Virus record (IMG/VR): IMGVR_UViG_3300021255_000047 | Coordinates: 1 to 33,517 of that record | DNA length: 33,517 nucleotides | From: a virus | Reading direction: 5' to 3' (one strand) | Shown here: positions 2,456-33,517 of the stretch, piece by piece | How positions within the stretch are numbered: position 1 is the first letter of the stretch | Layout of the letters: every line of letters starts with the position of its first letter | The notes under the pieces: generated by a model | Told to the model about the DNA's origin: nothing | Database searches by the model: none | What the model saw: only the letters and a program-made list of their open reading frames with translations | Position numbers and translations under genes: made by a program

Positions 2456-4008
2456 CAGTATCCTCCCTGTACGAGCGGCACTCCGACTCTGTTTGCCTCT
2501 TTGGTGTTGTATCTGTACTGATTGCGAGCGACCACAGCGCCGTCGAGCACCGCGGTAAGGTCAATGTTGATTACCTTTGTCTCGCTTTCAACTGGAAGCG
2601 CCATACTCATTGCTCCTGCTCCGGCAACGGTATAGCTCGGAGATCCGTCCGCGCTCCATGCGTTTGCGATCATGCCGCTTACCGTTCCGAGCTCTCTGCG
2701 GAGCTGGCCTTCGCCTTCCTTGATGCCCTTTGTGAAGAGGTCCATCATATCGGGTGCGAAAGTATGAAAGTTCGACAGCGGGCCTTCCTCCGGCTCGGAA
2801 AAGCCGAGGATCCTTTTTACTATCCCGGCCGCGTTCGATACGGTGTCGCGAAGCCTTTCAAACTTGGCTTTCAATCCGTCGATGAAGTTCTGTATGAGAT
2901 CGCTGCCCCAAGTCTTGGCCTTGTCAAGCATCGTTTTTATGCCGTCGCCGACCATCGTCACGATGTCTTTGCCGGCGTCTCGTATACTCGGCCACGCGGC
3001 CATCAGGCCCTTGACTATTGCCTTTATGATTTCCGGAACGGATGCCAAAAGCGTCGGGATATTCGAGAGAAGTCCCGCTATCAGCTGCCCGAGTAGCTTC
3101 GCGCCCATCTCCAGCAGCTTCGGCAAGTTCTGAATGAACGCATCCATCAGCCCGCCAAGGATCGCGACTCCTGTTTCGAGAAACTTCGGCAAATTCTCGT
3201 TCATCGTGCTCAGAACGTTGTCGATGCCCTCGTTTATCAGCGCCACGCCGCTGTCTGAATCGCCGCTGAATATTTTTGTCAAGCCGTCCATGACGGTCGT
3301 TATTCCCGGCATAAAGTCAGATGTCAGTCCGCGCTTCAAGCTTCCGAATGCAGTCTGCAGATCAGAAAGGCTGTCGTTGAACGTGGCCGCCGCCTTCACG
3401 CTTTCGTCGCTCATTACGCCGCCCAGCTCGTGCACGTGCTGCCGGAGCGCTTCTGTATCTTCCGCCGTTGTATTCAGCAGCGGCATAAGCTCCATCGCGC
3501 CCCTGCCCATCAGCTCTGTGGCCAGCCTTGCTCTTTCGCCTTCATCGCCGATACCCTGGAGCCCTGCAATCGTCGCCTCGAACAGTTCTTCTTTGCTCAT
3601 GCTGGCGACCTGTTCCTGACTCAGTCCGAGCTGCTCGAAGGCCGCGCTTCCTTCCGTCGCGAGATTGGAAAGCGTACGCATCGGCCCGGCTAAGGCATCA
3701 GCGGAGCTCCCGTTATACTGAAGGATCGCGTCCCACTCCTGAAAGGCCTGTGCGGATAAACCGAGCTTCTGACTCGCCTTGTCGATGTGGTCTCCGTAGT
3801 CAGACACCTGCTTTGCGCCGTCAAAAAGTCCCTTGGTAAGAGCGACCGTGGCTCCGGTGACCGCTGCTATCGCTGCGCCTCCGACAGCCATCGCGCCCTT
3901 GATCTTGCTCCCGAGCGACGACGCCTTGCTTTCTGCGTCTTTTGTTCCGCTATCAAATCCGGATGAATCAAGAGTTAAACTCGCAACGAGTGAAAAAAGA
4001 TCCATCAT
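2455..4008 (-). CDS. Tail tape measure protein (517 aa)
   Basis: Ala/Gly/Leu-rich helical protein (GGAAIAAVTGATVALTKGLFDGAKQVSDYGDHIDKASQKLGLS...). It follows the G/GT chaperone pair in the canonical order. Confidence 0.85.
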   Translation of the reverse strand: MMDLFSLVASLTLDSSGFDSGTKDAESKASSLGSKIKGAMAVGGAAIAAVTGATVALTKGLFDGAKQVSDYGDHIDKASQKLGLSAQAFQEWDAILQYNGSSADALAGPMRTLSNLATEGSAAFEQLGLSQEQVASMSKEELFEATIAGLQGIGDEGERARLATELMGRGAMELMPLLNTTAEDTEALRQHVHELGGVMSDESVKAAATFNDSLSDLQTAFGSLKRGLTSDFMPGITTVMDGLTKIFSGDSDSGVALINEGIDNVLSTMNENLPKFLETGVAILGGLMDAFIQNLPKLLEMGAKLLGQLIAGLLSNIPTLLASVPEIIKAIVKGLMAAWPSIRDAGKDIVTMVGDGIKTMLDKAKTWGSDLIQNFIDGLKAKFERLRDTVSNAAGIVKRILGFSEPEEGPLSNFHTFAPDMMDLFTKGIKEGEGQLRRELGTVSGMIANAWSADGSPSYTVAGAGAMSMALPVESETKVINIDLTAVLDGAVVARNQYRYNTKEANRVGVPLVQGGY

Positions 4009-4585
4009 TTCTCTCTTTCTGTAAGTCCCGCCCGCGCCCAGATATCCGCGACGATTTCTGCGGACGGTCTGTCGTCCACCTCTTGTTCTTTGTCCGTCTG
4101 GGTGATCTGGTCATACCAGCGCTGCGGAATATACTTTCCCTCGCCCTGCAGCCTCAATGAATCGGTCACATAAACGCGGTATGAAAGCTCCCACAGCGCT
4201 CGCTCTTCTCTCGCGGTCGCGTATCTTACGAAACCTTCGACTCCTCCTGGCCCTCGCCAGTCATTGATGCAGAGCCAGAGGAGCCCTGGGTCTGACCCCG
4301 CAATCCGAAAAGCGCCATAAGCGCCGGGTCGTTCATCATGTCGAGCGTTTCGACCAGCACGCTGGCCGCGTCGCAATGATAATCGGCCGGATCCTTTTCG
4401 TTCAAGATGGCAAACATCGCCATGACGTCCTTCGCGTTGTTCTGGAGCAGCGCGGACGCAAACGCCAGCTTGCCCTCTTCCTTCGCTTTCACGTTCTTTG
4501 CGTTCCCGGCAATATTGCCGATCGGAACGAGCAGTTTTGCTACGATCTCAATCGCTTTTTCGTCTTTGAAGTCAGACAGTCTCAT
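4005..4585 (-). CDS. Tail assembly chaperone, putative -1 frameshift product (gpGT-like)
   Basis: ORF 4005..4376 is in the -1 frame relative to 4226..4585 and overlaps its 3' end. It extends about 72 aa past the G stop and ends with an ATGA-type overlap on the tape measure start. No canonical slippery heptamer was seen. Confidence 0.45.
4226..4585 (-). CDS. Tail assembly chaperone (gpG-like)
   Basis: 119-aa acidic ORF between the major tail protein and the tape measure. Confidence 0.65.
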   Translation of the reverse strand: MRLSDFKDEKAIEIVAKLLVPIGNIAGNAKNVKAKEEGKLAFASALLQNNAKDVMAMFAILNEKDPADYHCDAASVLVETLDMMNDPALMALFGLRGQTQGSSGSASMTGEGQEESKVS

Positions 4586-6357: not shown

Positions 6358-7266
6358 CTATTCTCCGCCACCGGAAGTAGCGGCGGTGATGGTGCCCTTT
6401 ACGACGCCGGCCGCGTATTCGACCAGGAACTGAATTCCGCTCATTACGAGAGACTCAATCTGCGCCCTCTCCTCGTTCTGATAGCCGGACTTGATGCCGA
6501 CGAAGCCGGTCTCATCGGTGGTCAGCTCGAATGCCTGCGCGATGTCGCCGCTCATGGTCAGGTAGTACATGATGAGGTTGTTCTTCGCGGTTGCGATGAA
6601 GGTGCCCGCGGTGACCTTGCTGCTCATGATCACGGTGCCGAGTCCGAGGAAGTTCTCGATGTAGTTCATTCCGAATGCGGTCTGGAGCGTGATGTTCGCC
6701 TTGCCGAGATAATCGGCCACATCGAGCGGATTCACGAAGTAGACGGCCTCTGCGGTGTCGTCCTCGAACTTGACCTGGAGCTGGCCCCATGCGTCAGCAA
6801 GTGCGGCCTGCAGGCCCACGCCGGTGGCGGTTGAGCTTCCGGTGATGGTGCCATTCAGGAAGGTGAACATGTCAGTTCTGATTCCCTTCTGAACGTCGAG
6901 GAGGAGCGCCGCGTCGGTCTCTCTTACAGCTGCATTATAGCCGGACTTTTTGATGCTCTCCGCAGACGCGGCCTTTCTCCACTTCTTGAGAGTGATCTCT
7001 CCGACTGCGGTCTTGGTCTGCGCGTACTTGGAAAGCGGGATGATCTCGCCCTCGGGAACAGCGCCGTTCTGCAGGGTGCCGCTGGTGCTGTACACATACA
7101 TCGTGGTGCCTTCCTGCATCGGGACCTTTCTGGTCACGCCGAGCGCTTCGACGAGCTTGGCGAGAGAGTTGTGCGCGAACTGCGTCACGAAGTCGATCTC
7201 CCTTACTCTTGCGAGGTCAGTTGCCTTTATAAGATTGGTTTCGGGAGTGGTGACTACATTTGCCAT
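6358..7266 (-). CDS. Major capsid protein (HK97-fold type)
   Basis: 302-aa ORF following the scaffold gene. Size and sequence character (MANVVTTPETNLIKATDLARVREIDFVTQF...) are typical of Bacillota siphophage major capsid proteins. Confidence 0.8.
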   Translation of the reverse strand: MANVVTTPETNLIKATDLARVREIDFVTQFAHNSLAKLVEALGVTRKVPMQEGTTMYVYSTSGTLQNGAVPEGEIIPLSKYAQTKTAVGEITLKKWRKAASAESIKKSGYNAAVRETDAALLLDVQKGIRTDMFTFLNGTITGSSTATGVGLQAALADAWGQLQVKFEDDTAEAVYFVNPLDVADYLGKANITLQTAFGMNYIENFLGLGTVIMSSKVTAGTFIATAKNNLIMYYLTMSGDIAQAFELTTDETGFVGIKSGYQNEERAQIESLVMSGIQFLVEYAAGVVKGTITAATSGGGE

Positions 7267-7284
7267 TTGTTTTGCCTTTCTGGA

Positions 7285-7887
7285 TTAAAATCCGAATTTC
7301 TCGCGGTTTTCGAGGATTGCAGACTGTCTTGCGTCTATATCTTTTATCGCGAGAATGTCCTTGACCGACATATCTCCGGACTTTCCGCCGTTGGCCGGCG
7401 GAGTATTGGTATTTGCTCCCTTTTCGCTTGTGGTCGATACGAGGCCTTTGAAGGTCCCGCCTATCAGCGAATCGAGCGCCTTCGCGTCCTTGATGTTTTC
7501 GCCGTCAAGCTCGACCGCGGAGATTTCGTCGCGGCTGCCCTTGATGGCGATTTCAAGGTTTGCGCCTTTGATGCCCTTGCTCTCAAAGTATGCACGGACC
7601 GCCTTTTCTTTGGCTGCGGCAGTTTCCTTTCCGGTGATATCCGCCTTGTAGTCCTTGTATTCCTTTTCGAGCTTTTCGAAGTCGGTCTTTGTCTTGTAGT
7701 TGTTTTTAACGTCCGCTTTCAGGTCGTCCAGTTCCTTTTGAACGTCCTTCAGCTTGTCCGCATCTTCCTTTGCGGTTTTGAGCTGCTCTTTGAGGCCGTC
7801 TACGGTCTCGCTGTGAGCATTGATGATCTCGTCTACCTTGTCAGCCTCAATTCCCAGGGCTGCGAGGAATTTTCTGGTGAGTGCCAT
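7285..7887 (-). CDS. Capsid scaffolding protein
   Basis: 200-aa, highly charged K/E/D coiled-coil protein directly upstream of the capsid gene. Confidence 0.75.
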   Translation of the reverse strand: MALTRKFLAALGIEADKVDEIINAHSETVDGLKEQLKTAKEDADKLKDVQKELDDLKADVKNNYKTKTDFEKLEKEYKDYKADITGKETAAAKEKAVRAYFESKGIKGANLEIAIKGSRDEISAVELDGENIKDAKALDSLIGGTFKGLVSTTSEKGANTNTPPANGGKSGDMSVKDILAIKDIDARQSAILENREKFGF

Positions 7888-11889: not shown

Positions 11890-12247
11890 CTGACTTTACC
11901 TTCTCCAGCAGCTCATCCAGCTTGCTCAATTCCTCGGCGGCTGGATCCTCCACGGCCTTGGCCTCTCCGCTCAGCTCCAGAATGGCACGAAAAGCATTGA
12001 CCGCGTTCCTGTCTTTGCTATTGCTCGCGATCTTAAACATTGAAGCGATCAGAATATCTGCGCCCGAGGCTTCCTTGCCGTTCTTGTCCGTGAACGTCCC
12101 ATCCAGCACGGCTTGCAACGCCTTTTTCAGCGTGGCCTTTTCGCGCCTGGCCTTTCCGCTTGCAATTCCGCCCCTCTTGGCTTCTTCACGGCTTAGCTCA
12201 TATCCTCCAGGCTGGCCGCCCGGTTTTAAATTATGCTCATTCGCCAT
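11873..12247 (-). CDS. terS: Terminase small subunit (putative)
   Basis: Start MANEHNLKPGG at ATG 12247 is preferred over the TTG at 12298, which lies inside the promoter. Basic N-terminus; immediately upstream of and overlapping terL. Confidence 0.55.
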   Translation of the reverse strand: MANEHNLKPGGQPGGYELSREEAKRGGIASGKARREKATLKKALQAVLDGTFTDKNGKEASGADILIASMFKIASNSKDRNAVNAFRAILELSGEAKAVEDPAAEELSKLDELLEKVKSDAVQR

Positions 12248-12269
12248 ATAAAAAGTCCCTTCTATGCTG

Positions 12270-12298
12270 ATTATATAGCATAAAAGGGATTTTATCAA
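12270..12298 (-). promoter_or_regulatory. Sigma70-type promoter upstream of terS
   Basis: Minus strand reads TTGATA-N17-TATAAT, about 20 nt upstream of the terS ATG. Confidence 0.55.
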
Positions 12299-12304
12299 AA
12301 TATG

Positions 12305-12370
12305 TTAATTTATAAGCTCCGCCTTCCGGCCGGTGTAGTTCTCCCAGCGCTGCAGGATCACGTCAATCAT
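12305..12370 (-). pseudogene. Relic 3' end of an ancestral ParB-MTase gene (21 codons)
   Basis: MIDVILQRWENYTGRKAELIN* matches 10 of 18 positions of the current MTase C-terminus (SVIVNRWLNFTGRKDEIF). Its GC content looks like the backbone, unlike the AT-rich DNA just upstream. Confidence 0.6.
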
Positions 12371-12396
12371 TATTCCACCTTGCCTTCCAACCGTAA

Positions 12397-13026
12397 TTAT
12401 CGTTTATATCTTTCACAACAATATATTTTTTCTTTCCATTGTGACACATCACCGCCACGTTCCATGATGATTGACAATATATAATATTCTCGCATATGAA
12501 AGAAATAAGCAAACACATCATCCTCGCTTGTTGTACTATATTTCCTATGTTTCATGGTTACGGCTCTTGTAGCTTCATTGAAAAATTCGGCTGTTTCCTT
12601 GTCTGTTTTGCCCTCTGCTATAATCTCTGGCATACCCATCTTTTCGCCACCATTAAACAAAACAGGACATATGTAATTAGGCTCATAATTCTTTTGGGCA
12701 TAATTGAGCATAGCAAGCGTATAATCATTGAGATAATAAGCAACTATGCAATCACCGCCCGTGGAAGTATTGTAGCCTTGGTCAATCGTTTTTAATTCCG
12801 CAATCAAATATCTTTCAAGCGTTTCTGCCTGCTCTTTCGATATGCCGTCAATGATGATATTATGCGTTACGTTCTCCCATCCATACTTGTTTATGGCTCT
12901 TGCAATTTTAGGCTGAGTTTCGTACCCTTTACCGTTTCTCCATCGTTTTTCAGCATCGCATGAAATACCAATATATTTTTTGCCATTCGGGAAAATATGC
13001 TCATAAACGCAATAGTTTTTATTCAT
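12397..13026 (-). CDS. GIY-YIG family (homing-type) endonuclease
   Basis: Start MNKNYCVYEHIFPNGKKYIGISCDAEKRWRNGKGY (GIY...YIG...R motif spacing as in I-TevI-like enzymes). The ATG at 13026 overlaps the MTase stop by 8 nt. The gene is AT-rich. Confidence 0.7.
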   Translation of the reverse strand: MNKNYCVYEHIFPNGKKYIGISCDAEKRWRNGKGYETQPKIARAINKYGWENVTHNIIIDGISKEQAETLERYLIAELKTIDQGYNTSTGGDCIVAYYLNDYTLAMLNYAQKNYEPNYICPVLFNGGEKMGMPEIIAEGKTDKETAEFFNEATRAVTMKHRKYSTTSEDDVFAYFFHMREYYILSIIMERGGDVSQWKEKIYCCERYKR

Positions 13027-14587
13027 CAAACACCTCGTCATAAGTGAGTTTCTGCCCGTCACGGATGCAGAATATTTCATCTTTTCTGCCTGTAAAATTT
13101 AACCACCTGTTTACGATGACGGAAACGTATCTTTCATCAAGCTCCGCCATATAGCATTTTCTGTTTAACTGTTCACAGGCTATTAGTGTGCTACCACTAC
13201 CGCCAAATACATCAAGGACAATCTCGCCCTCTCTACTACTGCTCTTTATCGCTCTACTGCATAAGGCTATCGGCTTTGGTGTTGCGTGACCGCCTGTGTG
13301 TTCTCTTTCGTCTTTTCCTGCTCTGTCAAAGTGCCACACGTTGTTTTGGTTGTCGTGAGTATTGTCAAAATATGCCCGTGTTTCATACCATTCTTTCTTG
13401 ATTTCGTCATATTCTTTCTTGATTTCGTCATATTCTTTCTTGATTTCGTCATATTCTTTCTTGATTTCGTCATATTCTTTCTTGAATGCGTCATTACCAT
13501 TTCCACGACAGAATTTCTGTATTTTTTGATAATCATCTTTCTGAATTAATCGAGGTTGTTTCTGCGTTCCGTCTCGATTTAATGTCCAATGCTGTGCGAT
13601 GCTTTTGTAACCGCATATTTCATTTAAATCTTTTTCCGTTAATCCGCTTTTTTGTAATTCCTCTGTCATATATTTAAGATATACCCCAAGAGTTTCAGAA
13701 GCGTCTAATATGCCATCTGCACCTTGTACTCCCATCATCACAAACAAGCACTTTTCGTCTGCAATCGGGTACATTCTAAAATCTTCTGACAACTGCCCTT
13801 GTCCGTTCCCTTTGTCCCAAGTGATAAGGTTCCGAAATGTTATCTTGTTCTCTCTCGCCATCGGTTTCAAGATATTGCTGTAAATATCCATCAGCGGTTC
13901 ATCAATCCCCCAACAATACCAAGAGCCATTGTCTTTTAACGCTCCGAATGTCAGCGGAATCCATTGGCGGTTGAAGTCGAGCAAATCATCAAAGTTGAGG
14001 TTGTCATTCAGAACACCCTCGTTCTCTTTCTTCATGCCATAGGGAGGATCCGTGAAAACAAGGTCGGCCTTTACCCCATCCATAAGCCTATCAATGACCT
14101 CCGGATCCGTGCTATCTCCGCAAATCAGCCGGTGCTCTCCAAGCTGCCATATCTCTCCGGCCTTGCAGCGAGTCTCTACTTCCTCCGGGATCTCTACCTC
14201 CTCGACCTCTTTTGGCTCTTCATCTTCCATGTCAAATCCGAAGTCCGACATATCAAATTCGAAGATCTCCGAGATCTCCGCGTCCAAAAGGTCAAAGTCC
14301 CATTCGCTTTCGTTCGTCTTATTATCCGCCAGGCGCAAAGCCTTTATCTGTTCGTCGGTCAGATCGTCTGCTCGAACGACCGGGACGCTGCTCATTCCGA
14401 GCTTCTTCGCTGCCAAAAGTCGCCCGTGTCCTATAACGAGGACGTTGTTCCGGTCTACCACAAGCGGCTGCCTAAAGCCGAATTCTTTTATGCTGTTTGC
14501 TATGTGTTCGACCTGCTCCTCTGGGTGTTTCTTCGCATTCTTGTCGTATGGTACAATCTCCCCTATTGGCATATTTATTATTTCCAA
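13019..14587 (-). CDS. ParB-like nuclease domain fused to an N6-adenine/N4-cytosine DNA methyltransferase (beta class)
   Basis: N-terminal ParB/Srx-like block (IVPYDKNAKKHPEEQVEHIANSIKEFGFRQPLVV...GHGRLLAAKKLG). Motif IV TDPPYG comes before motif I VLDVFGGSGST. Confidence 0.9.
   Translation of the reverse strand: MEIINMPIGEIVPYDKNAKKHPEEQVEHIANSIKEFGFRQPLVVDRNNVLVIGHGRLLAAKKLGMSSVPVVRADDLTDEQIKALRLADNKTNESEWDFDLLDAEISEIFEFDMSDFGFDMEDEEPKEVEEVEIPEEVETRCKAGEIWQLGEHRLICGDSTDPEVIDRLMDGVKADLVFTDPPYGMKKENEGVLNDNLNFDDLLDFNRQWIPLTFGALKDNGSWYCWGIDEPLMDIYSNILKPMARENKITFRNLITWDKGNGQGQLSEDFRMYPIADEKCLFVMMGVQGADGILDASETLGVYLKYMTEELQKSGLTEKDLNEICGYKSIAQHWTLNRDGTQKQPRLIQKDDYQKIQKFCRGNGNDAFKKEYDEIKKEYDEIKKEYDEIKKEYDEIKKEWYETRAYFDNTHDNQNNVWHFDRAGKDEREHTGGHATPKPIALCSRAIKSSSREGEIVLDVFGGSGSTLIACEQLNRKCYMAELDERYVSVIVNRWLNFTGRKDEIFCIRDGQKLTYDEVFDE
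13391..13495. repeat. Tandem 21-bp repeat: 4 perfect copies plus 1 degenerate copy
   Basis: ttctttcttgatttcgtcata x4, in frame, encoding (EYDEIKK)n within the MTase. Confidence 0.95.
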
Positions 14588-24704: not shown

Positions 24705-25513
24705 TATTCTACCTCCTTAGCCAGCCACGCAGGCAGGCTCAAATTATTTATCACTCCGAATTTTCCGAGGTATCCATACCAGTTGCCGGTCTCCTTGCAG
24801 TCGTGGTATATCCCCAGCAGCTCCCGGAAGCGGTCAGCGCCTCTCTGTATGAACACCGGATCCGCCTGCAGAACGTTGATCGCGTAAGGCGCGGCTTTTT
24901 CCTGTGCTATGAATACGAAGATCGGCTTTCTTCCGGTGATCTTCTCCACGCCTTCGCTGTACATCGCCGCCTGGAAGTCATACCCCAGGTTGACGGCCTG
25001 TCTCATAAACGCCTCGGAGCTGGCGTCTGTGGTGCTCTTATAGTCCACGATCACCAGCTGTTTTTCGCCCTCCTGCTCGATCTCGGTTAGGCAGTCAACG
25101 CGGACCTTGCACAGCTCTCCGGTCAGTTCGTCTGTCCAGAAGAAGGCTTTTTCGTGCTCGCCTTTCAAAAGCCGCTCTACAAACGGCGCGGTCTTTTGCG
25201 CTGCGACCATCTCCGTGGCCTTCATCCAGTCGTCTGTCGTGACCACCGTTCGCCCTTCCGCGCCTTCCAGGAACGCTGCATACTCTTCCTTGCCGGCCTT
25301 TGTGCGCCTGTCAACGTTCGGCGCGACCGTGAACTCTTCGCACACGCTCTCCGGCTCCAGCGTGGCCTTGTGCACCAGCTGCCCGAATATCAGCGCCGGC
25401 GTCGGCTCCTCTGGGTGCTCTTCGTAATACTTGAACTTTTCCGGGCTTTCTGAAATCTTCCAAAGCTGGGAGCGGCTTATTCCTTCCGCTGCTCTATATT
25501 CGCGCTCAGTCAT
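24704..25513 (-). CDS. PD-(D/E)XK-family exonuclease (recombination partner of the annealing protein)
   Basis: VIVDYKSTTD...(D...DxK-type core), resembling phage DUF3799/Cas4-like nucleases. GGAGG lies 7 nt before the ATG at 25513. Confidence 0.65.
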   Translation of the reverse strand: MTEREYRAAEGISRSQLWKISESPEKFKYYEEHPEEPTPALIFGQLVHKATLEPESVCEEFTVAPNVDRRTKAGKEEYAAFLEGAEGRTVVTTDDWMKATEMVAAQKTAPFVERLLKGEHEKAFFWTDELTGELCKVRVDCLTEIEQEGEKQLVIVDYKSTTDASSEAFMRQAVNLGYDFQAAMYSEGVEKITGRKPIFVFIAQEKAAPYAINVLQADPVFIQRGADRFRELLGIYHDCKETGNWYGYLGKFGVINNLSLPAWLAKEVE

Positions 25514-25833
25514 CACATCACCTCCGCGATGAAGCGAACGATCGCGTCTCTTGCGTCTGCTACATCACCGGCCGAGAGTTCCTCCGCCAGCTTGTCTATG
25601 GTGTCGACCACCGCTGCCTGGCAATCCGGGCAGATGTCGTCTCCGTCCTTGCCGTTGTAGTATTTGCCGCAAACCGCGCACTTGGCCGCTTCCTCCCACC
25701 AGTCACTTCCGCACTCTGGGCAGACCCGCTCTTCGTATTCAGGCGGCTCGGTCTCGCTCCCTGCAAAAACCTTTTTTCCGCCGACGAGCTGTTCTTCTTC
25801 GAAGATTGCTCCGCACTCTAAGCAAATTAACAT
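25513..25833 (-). CDS. Double zinc-ribbon protein (106 aa)
   Basis: CLECG...CPECG and CAVCG...CPDC motifs. Confidence 0.5.
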   Translation of the reverse strand: MLICLECGAIFEEEQLVGGKKVFAGSETEPPEYEERVCPECGSDWWEEAAKCAVCGKYYNGKDGDDICPDCQAAVVDTIDKLAEELSAGDVADARDAIVRFIAEVM

Positions 25834-25834
25834 A

Positions 25835-26014
25835 TTATTCCTCCTTTTCGATGATTAATAGAATTTTGGCTGCGCTAATTTTCCTGATCGGCAGATCTTT
25901 TTCGCATCTGTTTATAGTCAGCCAGTTAAGCTTGCAAAGCTTTCCCATTGCCTCCTGGCTGAGGCTGTGCGCGACTCGGTAGTCGAAGCATCTTTCGCCT
26001 ATCGTCTTTTCCAT
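25835..26014 (-). CDS. Cro/XRE-like HTH regulator (59 aa)
   Basis: Manual ORF, below the track cutoff: MEKTIGERCFDYRVAHSLSQEAMGKLCKLNWLTINRCEKDLPIRKISAAKILLIIEKEE. It is the first gene after the early promoter, with AAAGGAGG upstream. Confidence 0.6.
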   Translation of the reverse strand: MEKTIGERCFDYRVAHSLSQEAMGKLCKLNWLTINRCEKDLPIRKISAAKILLIIEKEE

Positions 26015-26037
26015 GCCATACCTCCTTTGTTATGTTT

Positions 26038-26067
26038 ATTATAACGCTATAATAACATATATGTCAA
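26038..26067 (-). promoter_or_regulatory. Consensus sigma70 early promoter
   Basis: Minus strand reads TTGACA-N18-TATAAT. The inverted repeat TTATTATA-N4-TATAATAA overlaps the -10. There is an AT-rich upstream tract. Confidence 0.65.
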
Positions 26068-26099
26068 TATAATTTTATATAATTCTATATATTTTCGCA

Positions 26100-26130
26100 C
26101 TAAAAAACCGGGATTGCTCCCGGTTAAAAA
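26100..26130 (-). terminator. Rho-independent terminator closing the accessory cassette
   Basis: Minus strand reads AACCGGGA-GCAA-TCCCGGTT followed by TTTTTT. The stop codon of gene 26124..26468 lies in the stem. Confidence 0.75.
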
Positions 26131-26468
26131 TTGAGCTTGCGTATCGTGGCTGCGTACAGCCTCGGGTTGAATACCTGCACGGCGGTCATTAGCTCGTCTA
26201 TGACTGGCCATACCCGTGCCGGGTCCCTGCCGTTGATCGTCTCCGAGAATTCTGTTCCGCTGTCGTAATATATCTCTGTTTCGGTCTCGCTCGGAGGATC
26301 TCGGAAGGAATATTCGGGCATCGGTGCCGCCTCCGGCATCTGGCCTTTGCCTTGCAGGTGGTCGAGTATTATGTAGAACGCCGCCAGTTTCACGCAAGTA
26401 TTCGCGTTTGGGTTTCTTACTCCCTGGCACTCAGCGATCGCCTCCATCAAATCCTTTTCAGTTATCAA
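26124..26468 (-). CDS. Conserved phage hypothetical protein (114 aa)
   Basis: TTG start 5 nt after AGGAGGTG. The N-terminal block EAIAECQGVRNPNANTCVKLAAFYIILDHL is recalled from other Bacillota phages; function unknown. Confidence 0.6.
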   Translation of the reverse strand: MITEKDLMEAIAECQGVRNPNANTCVKLAAFYIILDHLQGKGQMPEAAPMPEYSFRDPPSETETEIYYDSGTEFSETINGRDPARVWPVIDELMTAVQVFNPRLYAATIRKLNF

Positions 26469-26482
26469 GAGGCCACCTCCTG

Positions 26483-26956
26483 TCAGCCGCGTTCAAGCTG
26501 GGAGATCAGCTCGTCAATTCTCTGCATGACCATCTGGTCCGGCGCGTCGTTCTTTAGCTGTTCCAGCTGCATGATCATGTCCTCGCGGCCTTCGTCTCTG
26601 GAATAACCGCCATCGCTGGCGTATCTGCCCATACTGTCTCTTCTGGCGTTGCTGCCTCTTCCGCGTCCGGGACTTGCGTAGCTTCCGCCGCGGTTAGTGC
26701 TTCCGCCCTGGCCGCCACGGTTTCCGCCGCGTCCGCCGCCCTGACCAGCTCTCGCATAGCTTCCGCCGCGGTACGATCCGCCGCGCATGCTATATCCTTC
26801 TTCTTCCTCGTAAGACTCGATGATCTTGTCGAGATTCTTGATCGCGTGCGCGAGCTTGTCCACGATGTCGAGGCTTCCGGCTGTCAGCTCTCCCTTCTGC
26901 CCGTACTCTTCGAGTTCTTTGCAGAGCATCTCTTTGAGTTCATAGATACCGTCCAT
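26483..26956 (-). CDS. Hypothetical protein with a central RGG/GGS low-complexity region (157 aa)
   Basis: Start MDGIYELKEML at 26956 after AAAGGAGG. Helical ends flank RGGSYRGGSYARAGQGGGRGGNRGGQGGSTNRGGSY. Confidence 0.6.
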   Translation of the reverse strand: MDGIYELKEMLCKELEEYGQKGELTAGSLDIVDKLAHAIKNLDKIIESYEEEEGYSMRGGSYRGGSYARAGQGGGRGGNRGGQGGSTNRGGSYASPGRGRGSNARRDSMGRYASDGGYSRDEGREDMIMQLEQLKNDAPDQMVMQRIDELISQLERG

Positions 26957-26969
26957 TTCGTCCTCCTTT

Positions 26970-27425
26970 CTATGCGATTCTTGCAACGGTCAGGTTTGCG
27001 TTCTGAACGTTGATAGCGGTTGCCGGATCTGCGGCCGTCGCGCCTTCGGAGACGTTCTCCACGGCTACGGTGAAGCAGCAGCCCTTCGGCACGGTGATGA
27101 TCGCGGTGCTGGTCACGTTGAAGTACTCATCCACCGCGGCCGGCGTCACGATTGCGCGGCTGGTCAGTATCGGCTCTCCGTCTATGGCCAGCGCAACGGC
27201 AATCGGGCCGACCGTCCCGTCCTCCGGAACGGCAATATTCGCATTAAAGGTCACCTGGTATCTGGCGGCGCAGGCGCAGGAGTTGTTTACGATGCCACGC
27301 AGAATTACAAGCCCGCTTTCGTTGCGGTGCAGGACGTATCCCTTATTACAGCGGATGCTGTCGTTCAGAATGACGTTCTGCCCCGGCTGTACCAGCTGGA
27401 TGGGGTTATAGGTAAATTCCGCCAT
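26970..27425 (-). CDS. Beta-rich protein, possibly a BclA-C-terminal / C1q-TNF-like jelly roll (151 aa)
   Basis: Start MAEFTYNPIQ at 27425 after AAGGAGGTG. The pattern YQVTFNANIAVPEDGTVGPIAVALAIDGEP...NANLTVARIA resembles TNF-like exosporium domains. This is recollection, not a search result. Confidence 0.55.
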   Translation of the reverse strand: MAEFTYNPIQLVQPGQNVILNDSIRCNKGYVLHRNESGLVILRGIVNNSCACAARYQVTFNANIAVPEDGTVGPIAVALAIDGEPILTSRAIVTPAAVDEYFNVTSTAIITVPKGCCFTVAVENVSEGATAADPATAINVQNANLTVARIA

Positions 27426-27436
27426 GACGCACCTCC

Positions 27437-28336
27437 TTAAAGGCTCCCGCCGCAGCCACAGCCACATCCGCTGTTATTGCTCGGGCAGGTGAAGATCGGC
27501 TGCATGCCGTATACCGGCATAGTGGGCACCGGGCAATCTCTCAGGCGCTGATACATCGCGTCGATCTCCGCGACCTGTCCTGCGCGAATCTGTGCGGTCT
27601 GTGCGACCTGAGACGCGGAAAGATTGGCCATTGTGAGCTGTCTTTCGAGATCCGCAATCTTTTCGTTCTTGGCGTCGATCTTGTCAGCGCAGAGCTGGTC
27701 AAGGATCCTCTGGGTGTTTGCGGTCTGATTTGTTATGATGTCGCGAAGGCCATCGGAAAGGGCCGCCCTGTCAGCGCAGTTCTCGGTTGCGATGGTGTAC
27801 TTAAGGTCAGCGCTGGCCAGCCTGTTCTCGCAGCAGCAATCGGCGAGCTGGCTTGCGAGGCCGTTAAAGCCCTGAGTCATTGCGGTCTGCGCCGCGAATG
27901 CGGTCTGCATGTTCGCCATCTGCCTTGCGTTCGCTCCCTGCTCTACTCCGGCGAAGCCGTTTGCAAGCGCCATCTGAACGTCGCTGCAGCAGTTGCAGAG
28001 CTGCGTGGAAAGGCTGCCGATGCCGTCTCTGATCGAGGTAATGTTGCCGTTGATCATCTGATCGCGGAAGCCGCCAGAAGTGATCTCCGCCTGATTCATC
28101 CAGGGATAGAGGCCACCCGCTCCGCCGTTTCCTCCGGCGTATCCGCCATTGCCCCAGCCGCCATTACCGACGAGGAGCAGGAAAAGCAGGATAATCCAAA
28201 AACCGCTGTCTCCGAATCCGTTTCCGAAACCGCCGCCGTTCGAATAAACGGGATAGGGCATGGAAGCGTTGCCGAAGCTCGCGGGTCCGACGAGCATAGT
28301 TGCGGGAATTCCGCCGTTGTCATCTGTAAGAGCCAT
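27437..28336 (-). CDS. Gly-rich membrane-anchored protein with clustered cysteines (299 aa)
   Basis: N-terminal GGGFGNGFGDSGFWIILLFLLLVGNGGWGNGGYAGGNGGAGG (TM flanked by Gly runs). Cys clusters CNCC and CCC, and a C-terminal CPSNNSGCGCGCGGSL. GAAAGGAGAG upstream. Confidence 0.65.
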   Translation of the reverse strand: MALTDDNGGIPATMLVGPASFGNASMPYPVYSNGGGFGNGFGDSGFWIILLFLLLVGNGGWGNGGYAGGNGGAGGLYPWMNQAEITSGGFRDQMINGNITSIRDGIGSLSTQLCNCCSDVQMALANGFAGVEQGANARQMANMQTAFAAQTAMTQGFNGLASQLADCCCENRLASADLKYTIATENCADRAALSDGLRDIITNQTANTQRILDQLCADKIDAKNEKIADLERQLTMANLSASQVAQTAQIRAGQVAEIDAMYQRLRDCPVPTMPVYGMQPIFTCPSNNSGCGCGCGGSL

Positions 28337-28392
28337 ATTGTCTCTCCTTTCAAGTTTTTAGAAATAAGATATATAAACCTCCGGCCGAGAAG

Positions 28393-28425
28393 TTTTGCAC
28401 AATTTATACACAATTTTTGCACAGG
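28393..28425. repeat. Three tandem 11-bp repeats (one helical turn each) in the intergenic gap
   Basis: Plus strand reads ttttgcacaat / ttatacacaat / ttttgcacagg, directly after the stop at 28426 and 57 bp before the next ATG. Confidence 0.8.
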
Positions 28426-28635
28426 CTATTTCAACATCTTTTGAAGCTGATTAGCCATCTTGACCGCCTGGTCGTATTGTGCCTGCGATACCTTGCCAGA
28501 GTTCAGCAGCTGCTGTACCTGCGCCCGCGGATCTCCGGAGAAGGTCTGTTTAAACTGGTTGAACTGGTTTATGATCTGCGCCATATTTCCGGGCAGCGCA
28601 TTTCCGCCCAGCGCGTTAAAAAGCGGATTACTCAT
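28426..28635 (-). CDS. Small Q/N-rich hypothetical protein (69 aa)
   Basis: Start MSNPLFNALGG at 28635, an 8-nt overlap (ATGAGTAA) with the upstream stop. Confidence 0.55.
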   Translation of the reverse strand: MSNPLFNALGGNALPGNMAQIINQFNQFKQTFSGDPRAQVQQLLNSGKVSQAQYDQAVKMANQLQKMLK

Positions 28636-29059
28636 CCTTTGCACCCCTTTCCATCAGCTCATCGACTCTGTTTCTCAATGCCTCCAGCTCGGACTTGAGC
28701 GCGTATTCTCCGCCCTGCGCGGCTCCGACTTTCGGCGTCTCATTCGGTGCCTTTGTCATTTCCGAATATTTGAAAACGCGAAGCGGAAGCGGCATTCCGG
28801 AAGCGTCCGCGGACTTCAAAAAGAACTGCTCGCTTTCGCTATCCATCAGCATGACCGTGGTGTTCGGCGCTACAAGGTACGATTTTGCCCCAGCTTCGCC
28901 CTGTACCCAGATCAGGCCGCTATTCTGGCCGGCGGACTGTACGGTCTGGACGGGCTGCGCCTGCGGGACCTGCTGTACCGGCTGCGGCTGTGGCGGCTGG
29001 TATTGTGGCTGGTAATACATCGGCTGATAGGACGCGGGAAAATAACTATTATAAGCCAT
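28628..29059 (-). CDS. Hypothetical protein with Q/P/Y-rich N-terminus, beta domain and C-terminal coiled coil (143 aa)
   Basis: MAYNSYFPASYQPMYYQPQYQPPQPQPVQQVPQAQPVQ..., then GLIWVQGEAGAKSYLVAPNTTVMLMDSE. AAGGAGG upstream. Confidence 0.6.
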   Translation of the reverse strand: MAYNSYFPASYQPMYYQPQYQPPQPQPVQQVPQAQPVQTVQSAGQNSGLIWVQGEAGAKSYLVAPNTTVMLMDSESEQFFLKSADASGMPLPLRVFKYSEMTKAPNETPKVGAAQGGEYALKSELEALRNRVDELMERGAKDE

Positions 29060-29062
29060 CGC

Positions 29063-29443
29063 TTATTCCTCCTTTTTTGAATAGAAATACAAAGGGATTT
29101 CTTTCGAGCTGTCCCAGCTGTCGAACAGATCTCCGTCGACGACTGTGGCAACGTGCCCGGAAAAAACGAGAACGAAGGTGCCCTCTGGGTGCTCCTTGCA
29201 GAATTGCTCCGCCGTCTTTATCTCTGGATATGTGTCCGGCATGGCCTCGCGCTTGAATCCTTTACTCCGCAGGAACGCTCCCCAGACAGCGTTGCTGGAC
29301 GGCATGTCGCCCATTACAAATCCCGCCAGTGCGATCGAGGCAAACGCGCTATCCCAATCAACGCCGACGGCCTTGCAGACCGCTCTTACCGAGCAATCTC
29401 CGACTTTTGCTCCTGTCGGATTCGGGTTATAGTATCTCCACAT
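29063..29443 (-). CDS. Putative papain/transglutaminase-fold cysteine enzyme (126 aa)
   Basis: Start MWRYYNPNPTGAKVGDCSVRAV at 29443 after AGGAGG. Candidate Cys (GDCSVRA) ... His (SGHVATVVDGD) ... Asp arrangement. Confidence 0.5.
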   Translation of the reverse strand: MWRYYNPNPTGAKVGDCSVRAVCKAVGVDWDSAFASIALAGFVMGDMPSSNAVWGAFLRSKGFKREAMPDTYPEIKTAEQFCKEHPEGTFVLVFSGHVATVVDGDLFDSWDSSKEIPLYFYSKKEE

Positions 29444-29473
29444 GCGGCCCCTCCTTTGCTTTAATTTTGGCAA

Positions 29474-29508
29474 TAAAAAACCGCCCGGACAATGAATCAT
29501 CCGTGCGC
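29474..29508 (-). terminator. Possible second terminator (imperfect hairpin plus T6)
   Basis: Minus strand reads GCGCACGGA-TGATTCATTG-TCCGGGCGG followed by TTTTTTATTG. Confidence 0.4.
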
Positions 29509-29520
29509 TTTTCGTGCAAC

Positions 29521-29553
29521 AAAAAACCGGGCCGCCCCAAGCCTCGACCCGGT
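29521..29553 (-). terminator. Rho-independent terminator after the HTH regulator gene
   Basis: Minus strand reads ACCGGG-N16-CCCGGT followed by TTTTTTG. Confidence 0.55.
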
Positions 29554-29599
29554 CTCTTGCCCTCTTCAAGGGCTTTCGAAAGGAGGTGCCAAAGAATGA

Positions 29600-29842
29600 C
29601 TATTCTAAGCGCCTGAACAGCGCCTCTTGGCCTTTATATACAATGGTCTTTGTGTGCCTGACGGATAAGTCGAATTCCTCCGCCAAAGCTTCAAAAAGAA
29701 CGCCATCTATCAGCCTGCGTTTCAAGATTGCTCTGTCGCGCTCGCTGTGTATATACTCATCTATCAGCTCCGATATTTCGCTATTAGTATAGTTTCTCAC
29801 TTTTTCGTCTTGATCCTGCCGGTGCCGTGGCACATGTTGCAC
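29600..29842 (-). CDS. Sigma-70 region-4-type HTH protein (YlxM/ArpU-like small regulator); start uncertain
   Basis: SERDRAILKRRLIDGVLFEALAEEFDLSVRHTKTIVYKGQEALFRRL is a region-4-like HTH. The only starts available are TTG at 29842 or GTG at 29833/29800, and the SD is weak. Confidence 0.55.
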   Translation of the reverse strand: MQHVPRHRQDQDEKVRNYTNSEISELIDEYIHSERDRAILKRRLIDGVLFEALAEEFDLSVRHTKTIVYKGQEALFRRLE

Positions 29843-29875
29843 TGGCGATATCCGGAGCTCCCGCCGGTCTTGCGT

Positions 29876-30154
29876 CTACGGCTGGTTGTTTTCTTCGTGT
29901 ACTTTACCCTCGCCATTAATGCTCACCTGCCCGCTCCCGTTTATTACGGCATTTCCGCCGTCCTTCGCGTCGGCCTCGTAGCTCTCCTGCGTGCTTATGA
30001 CTTCCCACTGGCTCTGGTAGTAGATCCACGCGGCGTTTGTTGCGAATAGAAGCGCGATCAAGATAATTATCACGATCCAAAGCCTTTTTATTATCCGCTC
30101 CAGCCTTGCCATTGCGGACTCGTGCGCTATGTAAGGCACGGTGTTATTTTCCAT
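29876..30154 (-). CDS. Single-pass membrane protein downstream of the lysin (92 aa)
   Basis: TM segment RLWIVIIILIALLFATNAAWIYY. Overlaps the lysin stop. Confidence 0.5.
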   Translation of the reverse strand: MENNTVPYIAHESAMARLERIIKRLWIVIIILIALLFATNAAWIYYQSQWEVISTQESYEADAKDGGNAVINGSGQVSINGEGKVHEENNQP

Positions 30155-30902
30155 CTTTTTTCTCCGCCCTATACAGCATCAGGACCGCGTCCTCGCGCTT
30201 CACGAAACTTTGCGGCATGAGATTTCCAGCGGCGTCTCCCACGCTAATTCCGTTCTTTTTCGCCCAGTCCAGCGCCTCTTTCGCGTATGCGTCCGCCGGC
30301 TCTTTTCTTTTCTCTTCCTCGTAGCGCTTCATGTATTCTTTGAACTGCTCGTATGTCATCTCATCTTCCTCCAGATCATACTCGATCCAGGGCAGCTGTC
30401 CCCAGCAGGTCCACTTCCGGTAGCTGTACCCTTTGCGCGGAGCGTTCAGCGCGGTTATCTGGCAGCCGTCCTTCCAGACCGGCGTGCTTTCAACCACGAG
30501 GCCGTCTCCGATGTAAACGCCGATGTGTCCTTTCTTCCAGACCGCGGCTCCCGGCTTTATGTTCTTCCAGTCAGTCCTCTTGGCCGGGCAGCGCTCGATC
30601 ATCTGGTCCGCATTTATATCCGGGACGCCGTTGCTGGCGTATACTGCGCCTCCGTTGCGGTCTTTCAGATTGCCGGTCCATCCCCAGAGCATGGCCTTTA
30701 TCATACAAACGCAATCGACGCCGATTGTGTCGGATGTTGCCGCCAGCACCTTGCGTTTCCGCTCCGGCTGCGAATTATATCCGTTCGTCAGCGCCCTCTT
30801 TTTGTTTGATTCCGTCATGGGCCATCCCCAGCCGCCGTTCACATACAGCGTCTTTTGTTTGGAAAGCGCGACCAGCTTGTCGATGAGCTCACTCGCCTTC
30901 AT
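30144..30902 (-). CDS. Endolysin: NlpC/P60- or CHAP-like cysteine peptidase fold with a C-terminal SLH-like wall-binding motif
   Basis: Start MKASELIDKL at 30902. Candidate catalytic GVDCVCMIK and KGHIGVYIGDG. C-terminal AKEALDWAKKNGISVGDAAGNLMPQSFVKREDAVLMLYR resembles an SLH repeat. Follows the holins. Confidence 0.6.
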   Translation of the reverse strand: MKASELIDKLVALSKQKTLYVNGGWGWPMTESNKKRALTNGYNSQPERKRKVLAATSDTIGVDCVCMIKAMLWGWTGNLKDRNGGAVYASNGVPDINADQMIERCPAKRTDWKNIKPGAAVWKKGHIGVYIGDGLVVESTPVWKDGCQITALNAPRKGYSYRKWTCWGQLPWIEYDLEEDEMTYEQFKEYMKRYEEEKRKEPADAYAKEALDWAKKNGISVGDAAGNLMPQSFVKREDAVLMLYRAEKKDGK

Positions 30903-33445: not shown

Positions 33446-33517
33446 CTATACATACACGAGGACGAAGCCGTCCGCGCCTTGTCCGCCATACGAGCCATAA
33501 CCGCCGCGGCCGGGATT
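33446..33517 (-). CDS. 3' end of the glycine-rich tail-tip gene that starts at 2078
   Basis: The frame from base 1 continues through the overlap (33492-33517 equals 1-26) to TAG at 33446-33448. The non-redundant part is 33446-33491. Confidence 0.7.
   Translation of the reverse strand, partial: NPGRGGYGSYGGQGADGFVLVYV

Follow-up and report, generated by a model that had tools for sequence, protein, structure and literature searches.

What does a tailed phage gain from seven small genes that lie between its lysis genes and its early genes and that were assigned, on first reading, to neither virion, replication nor lysis? The virus record IMGVR_UViG_3300021255_000047, a stretch of 33,517 nucleotides (nt) analysed at full length and referred to here as the window, carries such a cassette, whose genes we call A to G. 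A first-pass annotation made from the sequence had described it as a terminator-insulated accessory cassette of unusual proteins with an upstream regulator, and had speculated that it builds or remodels a cell, spore or virion surface layer. We find that the seven genes, together with an upstream helix-turn-helix gene (HTH) and a membrane-protein gene (TM92), form a unit that recurs in conserved order in gut and rumen phages, that the model of E has the jelly-roll fold of the TNF/C1q type, and that A carries an invariant Cys-His-Asp triad. Tentatively, and with less than even confidence, we read the unit as a separately controlled late module in which D and E would form a stalk and knob with F and G, A, B and C would serve as a maturation or partner unit, and the product would be exposed at lysis.

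Layout, conservation and genomic slot of the seven genes

Every gene of the window lies on the minus strand, the strand to which all window genes and regulatory elements given below belong. Reading of that strand from 29900 to 25980, together with the listing of open reading frames (ORFs), establishes a gene structure in which A (29443-29063, 126 amino acids (aa)), B (29059-28628, 143 aa) and C (28635-28426, 69 aa) are followed, after a gap of 89 nt, by D (28336-27437, 299 aa), E (27425-26970, 151 aa), F (26956-26483, 157 aa) and G (26468-26124, 114 aa, with a TTG start); public gene callers give proteins A-G identical to those read here. The tight packing that had been described for the whole cassette holds inside A-B-C, where C overlaps B by 8 nt, and inside D-E-F-G, but not at the C-D junction. 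Similarly, of the strong Shine-Dalgarno sites ascribed to all seven genes, AGGAGG-type sites are present at A, B, D, E, F and G, whereas that of C is weaker; the sequence indicates that C is translationally coupled to B. The proposed flanking terminators are also borne out. Ahead of A stand T1 (29554-29521), a GACCGGG...CCCGG stem followed by six T, and T2 (29503-29475), a hairpin with TTCATT in its loop; the HTH-A intergenic region that holds both folds at -57.9 kcal/mol (z = -3.2), and T3 (26125-26102, z = -2.9) closes the module after G. An Rfam scan of 25500-30500 returned no RNA family.

Sequence searches named none of the products. Pfam, NCBIfam and PADLOC scans of nine proteins (A-G, HTH and TM92) yielded nothing above threshold, with PADLOC giving 0 families at E <= 0.1 for all nine and so no match to a known anti-phage defence. 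Among PHROGs, A to E match only families of 'unknown function' (phrog_3754, phrog_21718, phrog_22984, phrog_16490 and phrog_20016, respectively), and F, G, HTH and TM92 match none; sequence-profile searches of the PDB with family alignments of A-G found nothing significant. Inspection of the sequences of A-G revealed no signal-peptide-like N-terminus.

The cassette is widespread. We scanned IMG/VR with E, keeping from 306 relatives the best 80 loci as chosen by their match to E, and a scan of GTDB genomes added 37 further loci, all of them in gut or rumen metagenome-assembled genomes (MAGs), mostly of Clostridia; gene presence was scored over 121 loci by tblastn and family hidden Markov models. 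All related loci examined come from gut or rumen samples. The order TM92-HTH-A-B-C-D-E-F-G is retained in nearly all 121 loci, with E present in 121, D in 117, F in 116, B and C in 102 each, A in 101, HTH in 70, TM92 in 63 and G in 49. Contig ends account for most of the absences, and A, B and C stand alongside D, E and F in about 100 loci. This synteny establishes that the seven genes travel as a unit; in the searches made, B, C, D, E and F were found solely in phages that carry the set. In public metagenomes clustered at 90% identity, A, D and E each account for at least 8000 clusters, those of D all unnamed, and no description of the gene set was found in the literature searched.

Whereas the order of the module is constant, its flanks vary, the window's own lysin being recognisable in 7 loci and the window exonuclease/RecT in 2. 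A census of neighbours (143 upstream and 150 downstream ORFs) shows at least 15 endolysin PHROGs plus holins on the upstream side, and integrases, helicases and repressors on the downstream side. The module is thus a portable unit that follows the lysis genes at the late/early junction, and the slot originally described, with the cassette between lysis and early genes, holds in the window and, statistically, across the loci. A location of this kind, running from lysis genes to integrase or early genes with variable flanks, is that of a moron; in prophages of Firmicutes, morons and lysogenic-conversion cassettes sit between the lysin gene and the integrase. With these the module shares, besides the slot, its own terminator, probably its own promoter, optional cargo and a mosaic distribution. 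Unlike morons, which are one or two genes, it comprises seven to nine co-evolving genes, also occurs in phages without an integrase, and has no recognisable toxin, exclusion or defence domain.

Carriers include temperate phages such as Dulem virus 33, in which the module lies between a PGRP lysin and the integrase, as well as phages without an integrase, namely the window phage, where none is detectable, and Butyrivibrio phage Ceridwen. The latter is the only cultured carrier; it infects Butyrivibrio fibrisolvens DSM 3071, and only a lytic cycle has been observed (PMC7372960, a study that includes no proteomics). The hosts of the other carriers are known from MAG bins only.

Gene spacing divides the module into two coupled sub-operons, ABC and DEFG: neighbours within A-B-C overlap or touch, D and E stand 6-19 nt apart in 75 of 75 loci, and the E-F and F-G gaps are about 15 nt, compared with a median of 69 nt between C and D. 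That the two are separable is seen in a pair of loci (L015 and L017) where D-E-F is bounded by tail-fibre genes and the holin and A-B-C lies past the holin. Other placements depart from the usual junction altogether. In L093 and L098 the module adjoins tail-fibre-like and collagen-like genes instead, and in Dulem virus 39 D and E sit in the replication region. L093 and L098 are two contigs of a single Lachnospiraceae MAG (CAMVKW01), each with a different copy of the module. Small fecal contigs of 4-7 kb also carry D and E. Since every longer locus belongs to a tailed-phage genome, we take these as fragments and dropped the idea that they are small genomes, the contigs not having been inspected one by one.

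The junctions within the module attract insertions. Homing-endonuclease-like genes (HNH/NUMOD4-like and GIY-YIG-like) and other cargo are found at the HTH-A, C-D and E-F junctions, especially beside the highly conserved E gene. Inserts of the homing-endonuclease-like kind lie at 6488-7351 in Ceridwen (L001) and at 6862-7413 in L119, at E-F or C-D in L026, L036, L071, L075, L085 and L115, and at HTH-A in L054, L060, L083 and L103.

The module proteins

Within the module, conservation is highest for E, which also keeps its Cys residues. Within the same loci its median identity to the window is 77%, as against 38-58% for the other module genes. Across the 80 loci its identity ranges from 70 to 97%, a range whose 70% floor is partly a selection effect because loci were picked by E; the contrast between E and its neighbours within loci is free of this effect. 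Sequence searches of named families and of the PDB came back empty for E: Pfam gives 0 families at E <= 0.1, NCBIfam nothing relevant, and a PDB profile search 0 matches at E <= 10. Its structure proved more informative. The AlphaFold2 (AF2) model of E, a monomer prediction that, like our other models, was built from an alignment of database proteins (62 homologues; pLDDT 87.8, pTM 0.81), matches the C-terminal domain (CTD) of F-BclA (9h38) in a Foldseek search of the PDB at E = 1e-6 and TM 0.71. Further matches include ExsF (9h3d), BxpB (8d02), ExsFA (7r1m), EDA, BclA, 4-1BBL and C1q, along with the central spike knob of phi812 (9eul) and the cyanophage A4 tail; the Foldseek probability is 1.00 for 9h38, 9h3d, 8d02, 7r1m, 1rj8 and 1wck, and the model shows the ten-strand jelly roll. 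In BFVD, uncultured gut phages supply the best matches, uncharacterised proteins of 130-142 aa among which one is named 'BclA protein'; tail fibres and collagen-like proteins with terminal C1q-like knobs come next. Model and structural search therefore agree with the resemblance to BclA-CTD and C1q/TNF jelly rolls noticed in the first-pass annotation, and on the strength of the model we are confident in assigning E as a standalone jelly roll of the TNF/C1q type.

When 1.84 billion cluster representatives were searched exhaustively, 576 relatives of E came up, and the best 150 of these, at 59-196 aa, are essentially all just the E domain, indicating that among these best 150 E is never fused to a stalk. 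E itself, with 151 aa and no repeat, lacks a collagen-like GXY stalk. The Bacillus exosporium proteins (BclA-CTD, F-BclA and ExsFA/BxpB/ExsF) share its jelly roll (TM 0.70-0.71, E about 1e-6), and ExsFA/BxpB is likewise a standalone protein of about 150 aa; proteins of the ExsFA/BxpB type in Bacillus are made without a signal peptide. The two groups differ in sequence (8-16% identity), in that E has no collagen-like stalk and is encoded by phages, one of which infects a non-sporulating host, and in that the partner genes of E are unrelated to ExsY, CotY or BclA. The C1q-like knobs of phage tail fibres and of giant-virus collagen-like fibrils have the same fold and are also viral, but they are fused to shafts, whereas E is a separate polypeptide, encoded past the lysis genes and unusually conserved. 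This conservation argues against a host-range determinant and for a constraint of self-assembly or an invariant ligand. We also considered E as a capsid decoration and set the idea aside: carriers vary widely (contigs of 30-110 kb with differing flanks), which makes a shared capsid binding site unlikely, the capsid genes themselves not having been compared.

The second protein with an interpretable structure is A. Alignments of 42 and 66 sequences show Cys17, His97 and Asp108 to be invariant. In the AF2 model (pLDDT 93.6), the Cys starts a helix (17-27), the His sits at a strand (98-102) and the Asp closes another (105-108), the two strands being adjacent. A thus has a Cys-His-Asp triad in the order and secondary-structure context of papain and transglutaminase-type enzymes, and from alignment and model together it is a putative thiol enzyme of papain-like design. 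Foldseek returned no PDB match at E <= 0.001 (best E = 0.2); the weak matches that make sense are Josephin-2 (6pgv; TM 0.52, probability 0.54), a tegument-like deubiquitinase (8adb) and Tae4 (4j30). The earlier description of A as papain/transglutaminase-like is therefore retained for its papain-like arrangement but not supported for transglutaminase, the best weak matches being of deubiquitinase type. Papain-like enzymes at large (Josephin-type, NlpC/P60-type Tae4 and transglutaminase-like proteases) place Cys, His and Asp as A does, but A matches none of them significantly, has no Pfam family and, at 126 aa, is smaller than known members. A relationship of A and D to double-glycine leaders and C39 was dropped, as leader motif and maturase gene are both absent.

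A also occurs by itself, in Tsamsa-like phages of Bacillus (as 'putative peptidase'), in Geobacillus phage GBK2 and in Lak phages, and in this solitary state it suggests an effector of the host-takeover type. Solo copies lie at 3974-4369 in Bacillus phage Izhevsk (L122) and at 3986-4375 in GBK2 (L123). The Tsamsa-like copies adjoin a Ser/Thr kinase gene and an Ocr-like anti-restriction gene, and that of GBK2 sits at the late/early junction.

The remaining proteins are marked by composition, and counts for B, C, D and F agree with the unusual make-up first ascribed to the set. B has 13 Q, 9 P and 6 Y in residues 1-45; this Q/P/Y-rich N-terminus is followed by a conserved core of ~55 aa (WVQGEAGAKSY...KSADASGMP) and a C-terminal helix. 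C is helical, with 17% Q and 12% N. F consists of an N-terminal helix, a variable Y/S/G/R-rich tract (RGG/SY) and a C-terminal helix, with the conserved motif RGRG-NARRDSMGRYS. B, C and F combine short conserved cores with low-complexity tracts in which composition is kept and sequence is not. G is the variable last gene, replaced in many loci by a distant variant, 'G2', that has the same N-terminal motif. Searches of the PDB gave no match for B, C, F or G, C producing coiled-coil or designed-helix noise.

D, the largest of the seven, contains 14% G and 13 Cys, arranged in CNCC, CCC and CGCGCG clusters. Its Gly-rich N-terminus includes a Trp-flanked hydrophobic segment at residues ~45-57, the sole hydrophobic stretch among the seven proteins; its middle part is made of helical repeats with conserved Cys (C114, CCC167-169, C187 and C216), and its C-terminal tail (CPVPT..PIFTC..GCGCGCG) is conserved. 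A PDB profile search with D gave coiled-coil noise only. Two other candidate identities for D were discarded. An i-spanin would combine an N-terminal transmembrane segment with a coiled coil and Cys and would pair with an outer-membrane lipoprotein in a diderm host; D does have a transmembrane-like segment, helices and Cys, but no lipoprotein partner was seen among the genes, and the known host, Butyrivibrio, is monoderm. The GCGCGCG tail was also considered as a RiPP, an idea given up because neither a leader motif nor a maturase gene is present.

Regulatory elements and the carrier genome

HTH (29842-29600) encodes 80 aa from a GTG at 29842 or 66 aa from a GTG at 29800; given the lengths of its homologues (median 70 aa), the start at 29800 appears more likely. 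The protein scores below cut-off against Pfam Sigma70_r4 (E = 0.007, 16.3 bits, cut-off 24.1), NCBIfam sigma70-ECF (E = 0.0012, 18.5 bits, cut-off 42.9) and the SigW C-terminus (E = 0.0018), and its match covers just the last ~70 positions of the ECF models. With 66-80 aa and no region 2, it is not a sigma factor. The region-4-type regulator placed upstream of the cassette by the first-pass annotation thus exists and accompanies the module, although its similarity to sigma region 4 is weak. It is comparable to free-standing sigma region-4 or LuxR/GerE-type regulators, which likewise consist of one region-4-like helix-turn-helix, but unlike them it scores below all family cut-offs. TM92 (29876-30154), whose start overlaps the endolysin stop, is a 92-aa single-pass membrane protein with hydrophobic residues 21-39, and its homologues, where found, lie upstream of HTH. 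In analogy to anti-sigma/sigma pairs, which it loosely resembles, the TM92-HTH pair suggests a unit of membrane protein and regulator. The pair is intact in five loci (L026, L033, L034, L042 and L072) where 1.5-3.6 kb of unrelated genes intervene before A.

Upstream of A, a conserved cis-regulatory unit (29519-29463) spans T2. TTGCAC and GCGCAC boxes in 11-bp phase (29519-29503) are followed, 17 nt on, by the TTCATT in the T2 loop, and a box ATTGCCAAAATT (29474-29463) comes after T2. Many loci have the same arrangement upstream of A: two or three (A/T)TGCAC boxes in 11-bp phase, the proximal one 17 nt before a TTCAT(T/C)G in a hairpin loop, then a T-run and a TTGCCAAAATT box. The pattern TGCAC-N16-19-TTCAT precedes A in 14 of 101 loci, where 0.0016 would be expected per 230 nt, and occurs once in the window; tandem boxes are found in 15 of 101 loci, against 0.005 expected. 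Twenty-three of the 24 loci with a conserved promoter-like element also have the HTH gene. Related loci with the box and hairpin element upstream of A include L003, L018, L031, L037, L045, L071 and L087.

The element looks like a promoter built into a terminator. A transcript that started just past TTCATT would be missing the hairpin's 5' arm and would thereby escape termination, and read-through transcripts from the lysis operon would stop at the hairpin. The TTGCAC box resembles TTGACA, the -35 hexamer read by region 4, and our working hypothesis is that HTH binds the TTGCAC boxes. A related element lies between C and D (28423-28368), where the 11-bp direct repeat TGTGYAWAAAY stands three times (28423-28392), together with a hairpin (28395-28375) and a -10-like box rich in A/T. 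In most related loci the C-D gap contains a hairpin whose stems covary and whose loop is of the GTGCGCA type (GTGCGCA, GTGCACA or TTGCAAG), followed 6-9 nt later, and about 45-50 nt before the D start codon, by ATAAATAAA. This motif is present in 44 of 107 loci, against 0.011 expected; 36 sequences contain 32 distinct stems, with a mean stem length of 4.56 compared with 3.40 +/- 0.17 for shuffled sequences. The C-D element may act as a DNA operator or as an RNA element.

PHROG scans of the rest of the window describe a siphophage genome of 33.5 kb. Its ends share a 26-nt direct repeat (1-26 and 33492-33517), indicating that the assembly is circular and the genome apparently complete; a large tail gene of roughly 730 aa spans the circular junction and is for that reason missing from the ORF listing. 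The scans identify the large terminase (11889-10615), portal (10618-9242), head morphogenesis protein (9238-8315), major head protein (7266-6358), major tail protein (5363-4596) and tape measure (4008-2455), as well as a primase/helicase (21288-19324), methyltransferases, an exonuclease (25516-24704) and a RecT-like protein (24704-23829). On the upstream side of the module lie the holin (31143-30889) and the endolysin (30926-30144). The endolysin has no PHROG family match at E <= 0.001; its Cys/His pattern looks NlpC/P60-like, and its C-terminus gives a borderline match to the SLH domain (E = 0.0006; 20.1 bits, cut-off 20.8), a hint that the host has SLH-anchored wall polymers. On the other side, directly past T3, a predicted sigma-70 promoter with a perfect 12/12 match (TTGACA-18-TATAAT, 26067-26038) would drive a 59-aa XRE-like gene and the recombination genes, and appears to mark a sharp late/early boundary there. 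Elsewhere in the window, the GC content falls from about 0.54 to 0.40-0.42 at 12001-14000. An ORF in this island (13080-12397), flanked by the large terminase gene and a fusion of ParB-like nuclease and DNA methyltransferase (14587-13019), is homing-endonuclease-like (phrog_314 and phrog_7168), and the island is probably a recent selfish insertion.

Possible functions of the module

The reading that we tentatively favour is that of a self-contained accessory unit of tailed phages of gut and rumen Clostridia, placed at the end of the late region. The tandem terminators would shield it from late read-through, and its own activator-dependent promoters, one with TTGCAC-type boxes in T2 and one in the related element before D, would control it, with HTH probably binding the box-type elements. 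D, as a hydrophobically anchored, Gly/Cys-rich helical protein, would be the stalk, and E, presumably a trimer, would be the knob on D. F and G would be assembly partners or scaffolds for D-E, and A may process or cross-link partners, with B and C as the low-complexity proteins of ABC. Because none of the seven has a secretion signal, we infer that the complex is produced within the cytoplasm or on the inner side of the membrane; it would reach the outside only upon cell lysis and there, sitting on virions, envelope debris or neighbouring cells, would serve for adhesion or protection. The single hydrophobic segment and conserved Cys of D, and the tight coupling of D and E, speak for this arrangement, as do the standalone state and high conservation of E, whose fold in viruses is typically a distal knob, and the loci with module genes next to fibre genes; the presence of the module in the integrase-less window phage and in lytic Ceridwen means that it must pay off in lytic growth.

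Several observations weigh against it. No experiment or homology links any of the seven proteins to a function, and the D-E complex is deduced from gene coupling only. A hydrophobic segment of membrane type is odd in a virion fibre, and a receptor-binding knob is expected to be variable, yet E is the most conserved of the proteins. Genes of temperate phages in this slot are often expressed from the prophage and not late, and Dulem virus 39 has D and E among its replication genes. The cis elements might act at the level of RNA and not as promoters. Finally, A stands alone near early or host-takeover genes in unrelated phages, so that ABC and DEFG may differ in function.

Much of the same evidence can be arranged differently. 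D and E could be an auxiliary fibre and knob attached to the head, neck or tail, with F and G as chaperones and ABC as maturation factors, a virion appendage that we regard as possible though improbable. A TNF/C1q knob is a classic fibre tip, small genes just downstream of a fibre gene are usually fibre chaperones, the module stands beside tail-fibre genes in L015/L017 and L093/L098, and the lack of secretion signals fits a cytoplasmic, virion-like assembly; yet the module usually lies past the lysis genes, behind terminators and outside the structural operon, no common attachment site is evident among carriers with contigs of 30-110 kb and unrelated endolysins, and both the membrane-like segment of D and the high conservation of E, unlike that of host-range determinants, fit poorly. 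The membrane-like segment would find a use if the module acted in the living cell, lysogen or infected, as an exclusion or defence complex in which D anchors cytoplasmic E, F and G that block or sense rival phages and A is the effector protease. This we consider doubtful. Prophages place exclusion and defence cargo in this slot behind the lysin, and the module has its own regulator, insulation from late transcription, a membrane anchor and a protease-like enzyme, but PADLOC found no match, and the weak best PDB match of D, to the ZorA tail (E = 0.011), was rejected as compositional noise at the level of coiled coils. Defence genes are, moreover, usually fast-evolving, in contrast to E with its high identity among the 80 loci of best E match; apparently obligately lytic phages carry the module too; and seven to nine genes would be a large set. 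It is unlikely, too, that the junction is merely permissive and holds two or three independent accessory units (A; B-C; D-E-F-G with TM92-HTH). The solo occurrence of A, the holin that splits ABC from DEF, the element upstream of D and the endonuclease and other cargo at three junctions all point that way, against which stand the joint presence of A-C and D-F in about 100 of the 121 loci with absences mostly due to truncated contigs, the restriction of B-F to set-carrying phages, and the strongly conserved order and spacing.

The explanations that start from composition are less probable still. A condensate, matrix or occlusion-type body around E, driven by the RGG tract of F, the Q/P/Y tract of B, Q/N-rich C and Gly-rich D, would account for tracts that keep their composition and not their sequence around a highly conserved E with conserved Cys; this is very unlikely, since the analogy is purely compositional, RGG- and Y-rich tracts occur also in ordinary structural and nucleic-acid-binding proteins, and we know of no condensate or occlusion-type structure in tailed phages. 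We give equally little weight to a coat or matrix built by the phage from an E trimer on Cys-rich D with B, C and F, matured by A and possibly cross-linked. Such a layer, if real, would be made at the end of infection and would cloak virions or the remnants of lysed cells, aiding survival or adhesion in gut transit, and would be a phage analogue of the outer layers of spores or of the very late occlusion proteins of baculoviruses. Least probable is remodelling of the spore coat or exosporium, the spore-surface role raised in the first-pass annotation. The nearest structures to E are indeed F-BclA, ExsF, BxpB/ExsFA and BclA, the Cys-rich, Tyr/Gly-rich and Q-rich compositions recall coat proteins, which are also made without signal peptides, and many candidate hosts are Clostridia. 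As a general function this role is nevertheless unlikely, because the Ceridwen host, Butyrivibrio fibrisolvens, is to our knowledge a non-spore-former, lytic phages carry the module, and none of the proteins matches the Tgl, GerQ, CotY/Z or BclA families in Pfam or NCBIfam or has homology to ExsY; the TNF-like fold, for its part, occurs just as commonly in phage fibres.

This gene set is that of no known system, and its components are at most fold-level relatives of known proteins; the module may still represent a known class in variant form, for example a fibre, an exclusion system or moron cargo. None of the seven proteins matches Pfam, NCBIfam, PADLOC or the PDB by sequence despite their abundance, and solving the role of the module would annotate thousands of 'hypothetical' genes. 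A promoter embedded in a terminator, phased TTGCAC boxes and a region-4-like protein would together make a tidy regulatory design, and Ceridwen, as the one cultured system, makes the module directly testable. A unit kept by temperate and lytic phages alike must give a real advantage in the gut. That advantage could lie in adhesion, in the coating of virions or debris, in exclusion or in something new, and it might reveal a new kind of interaction between phages and their surroundings.

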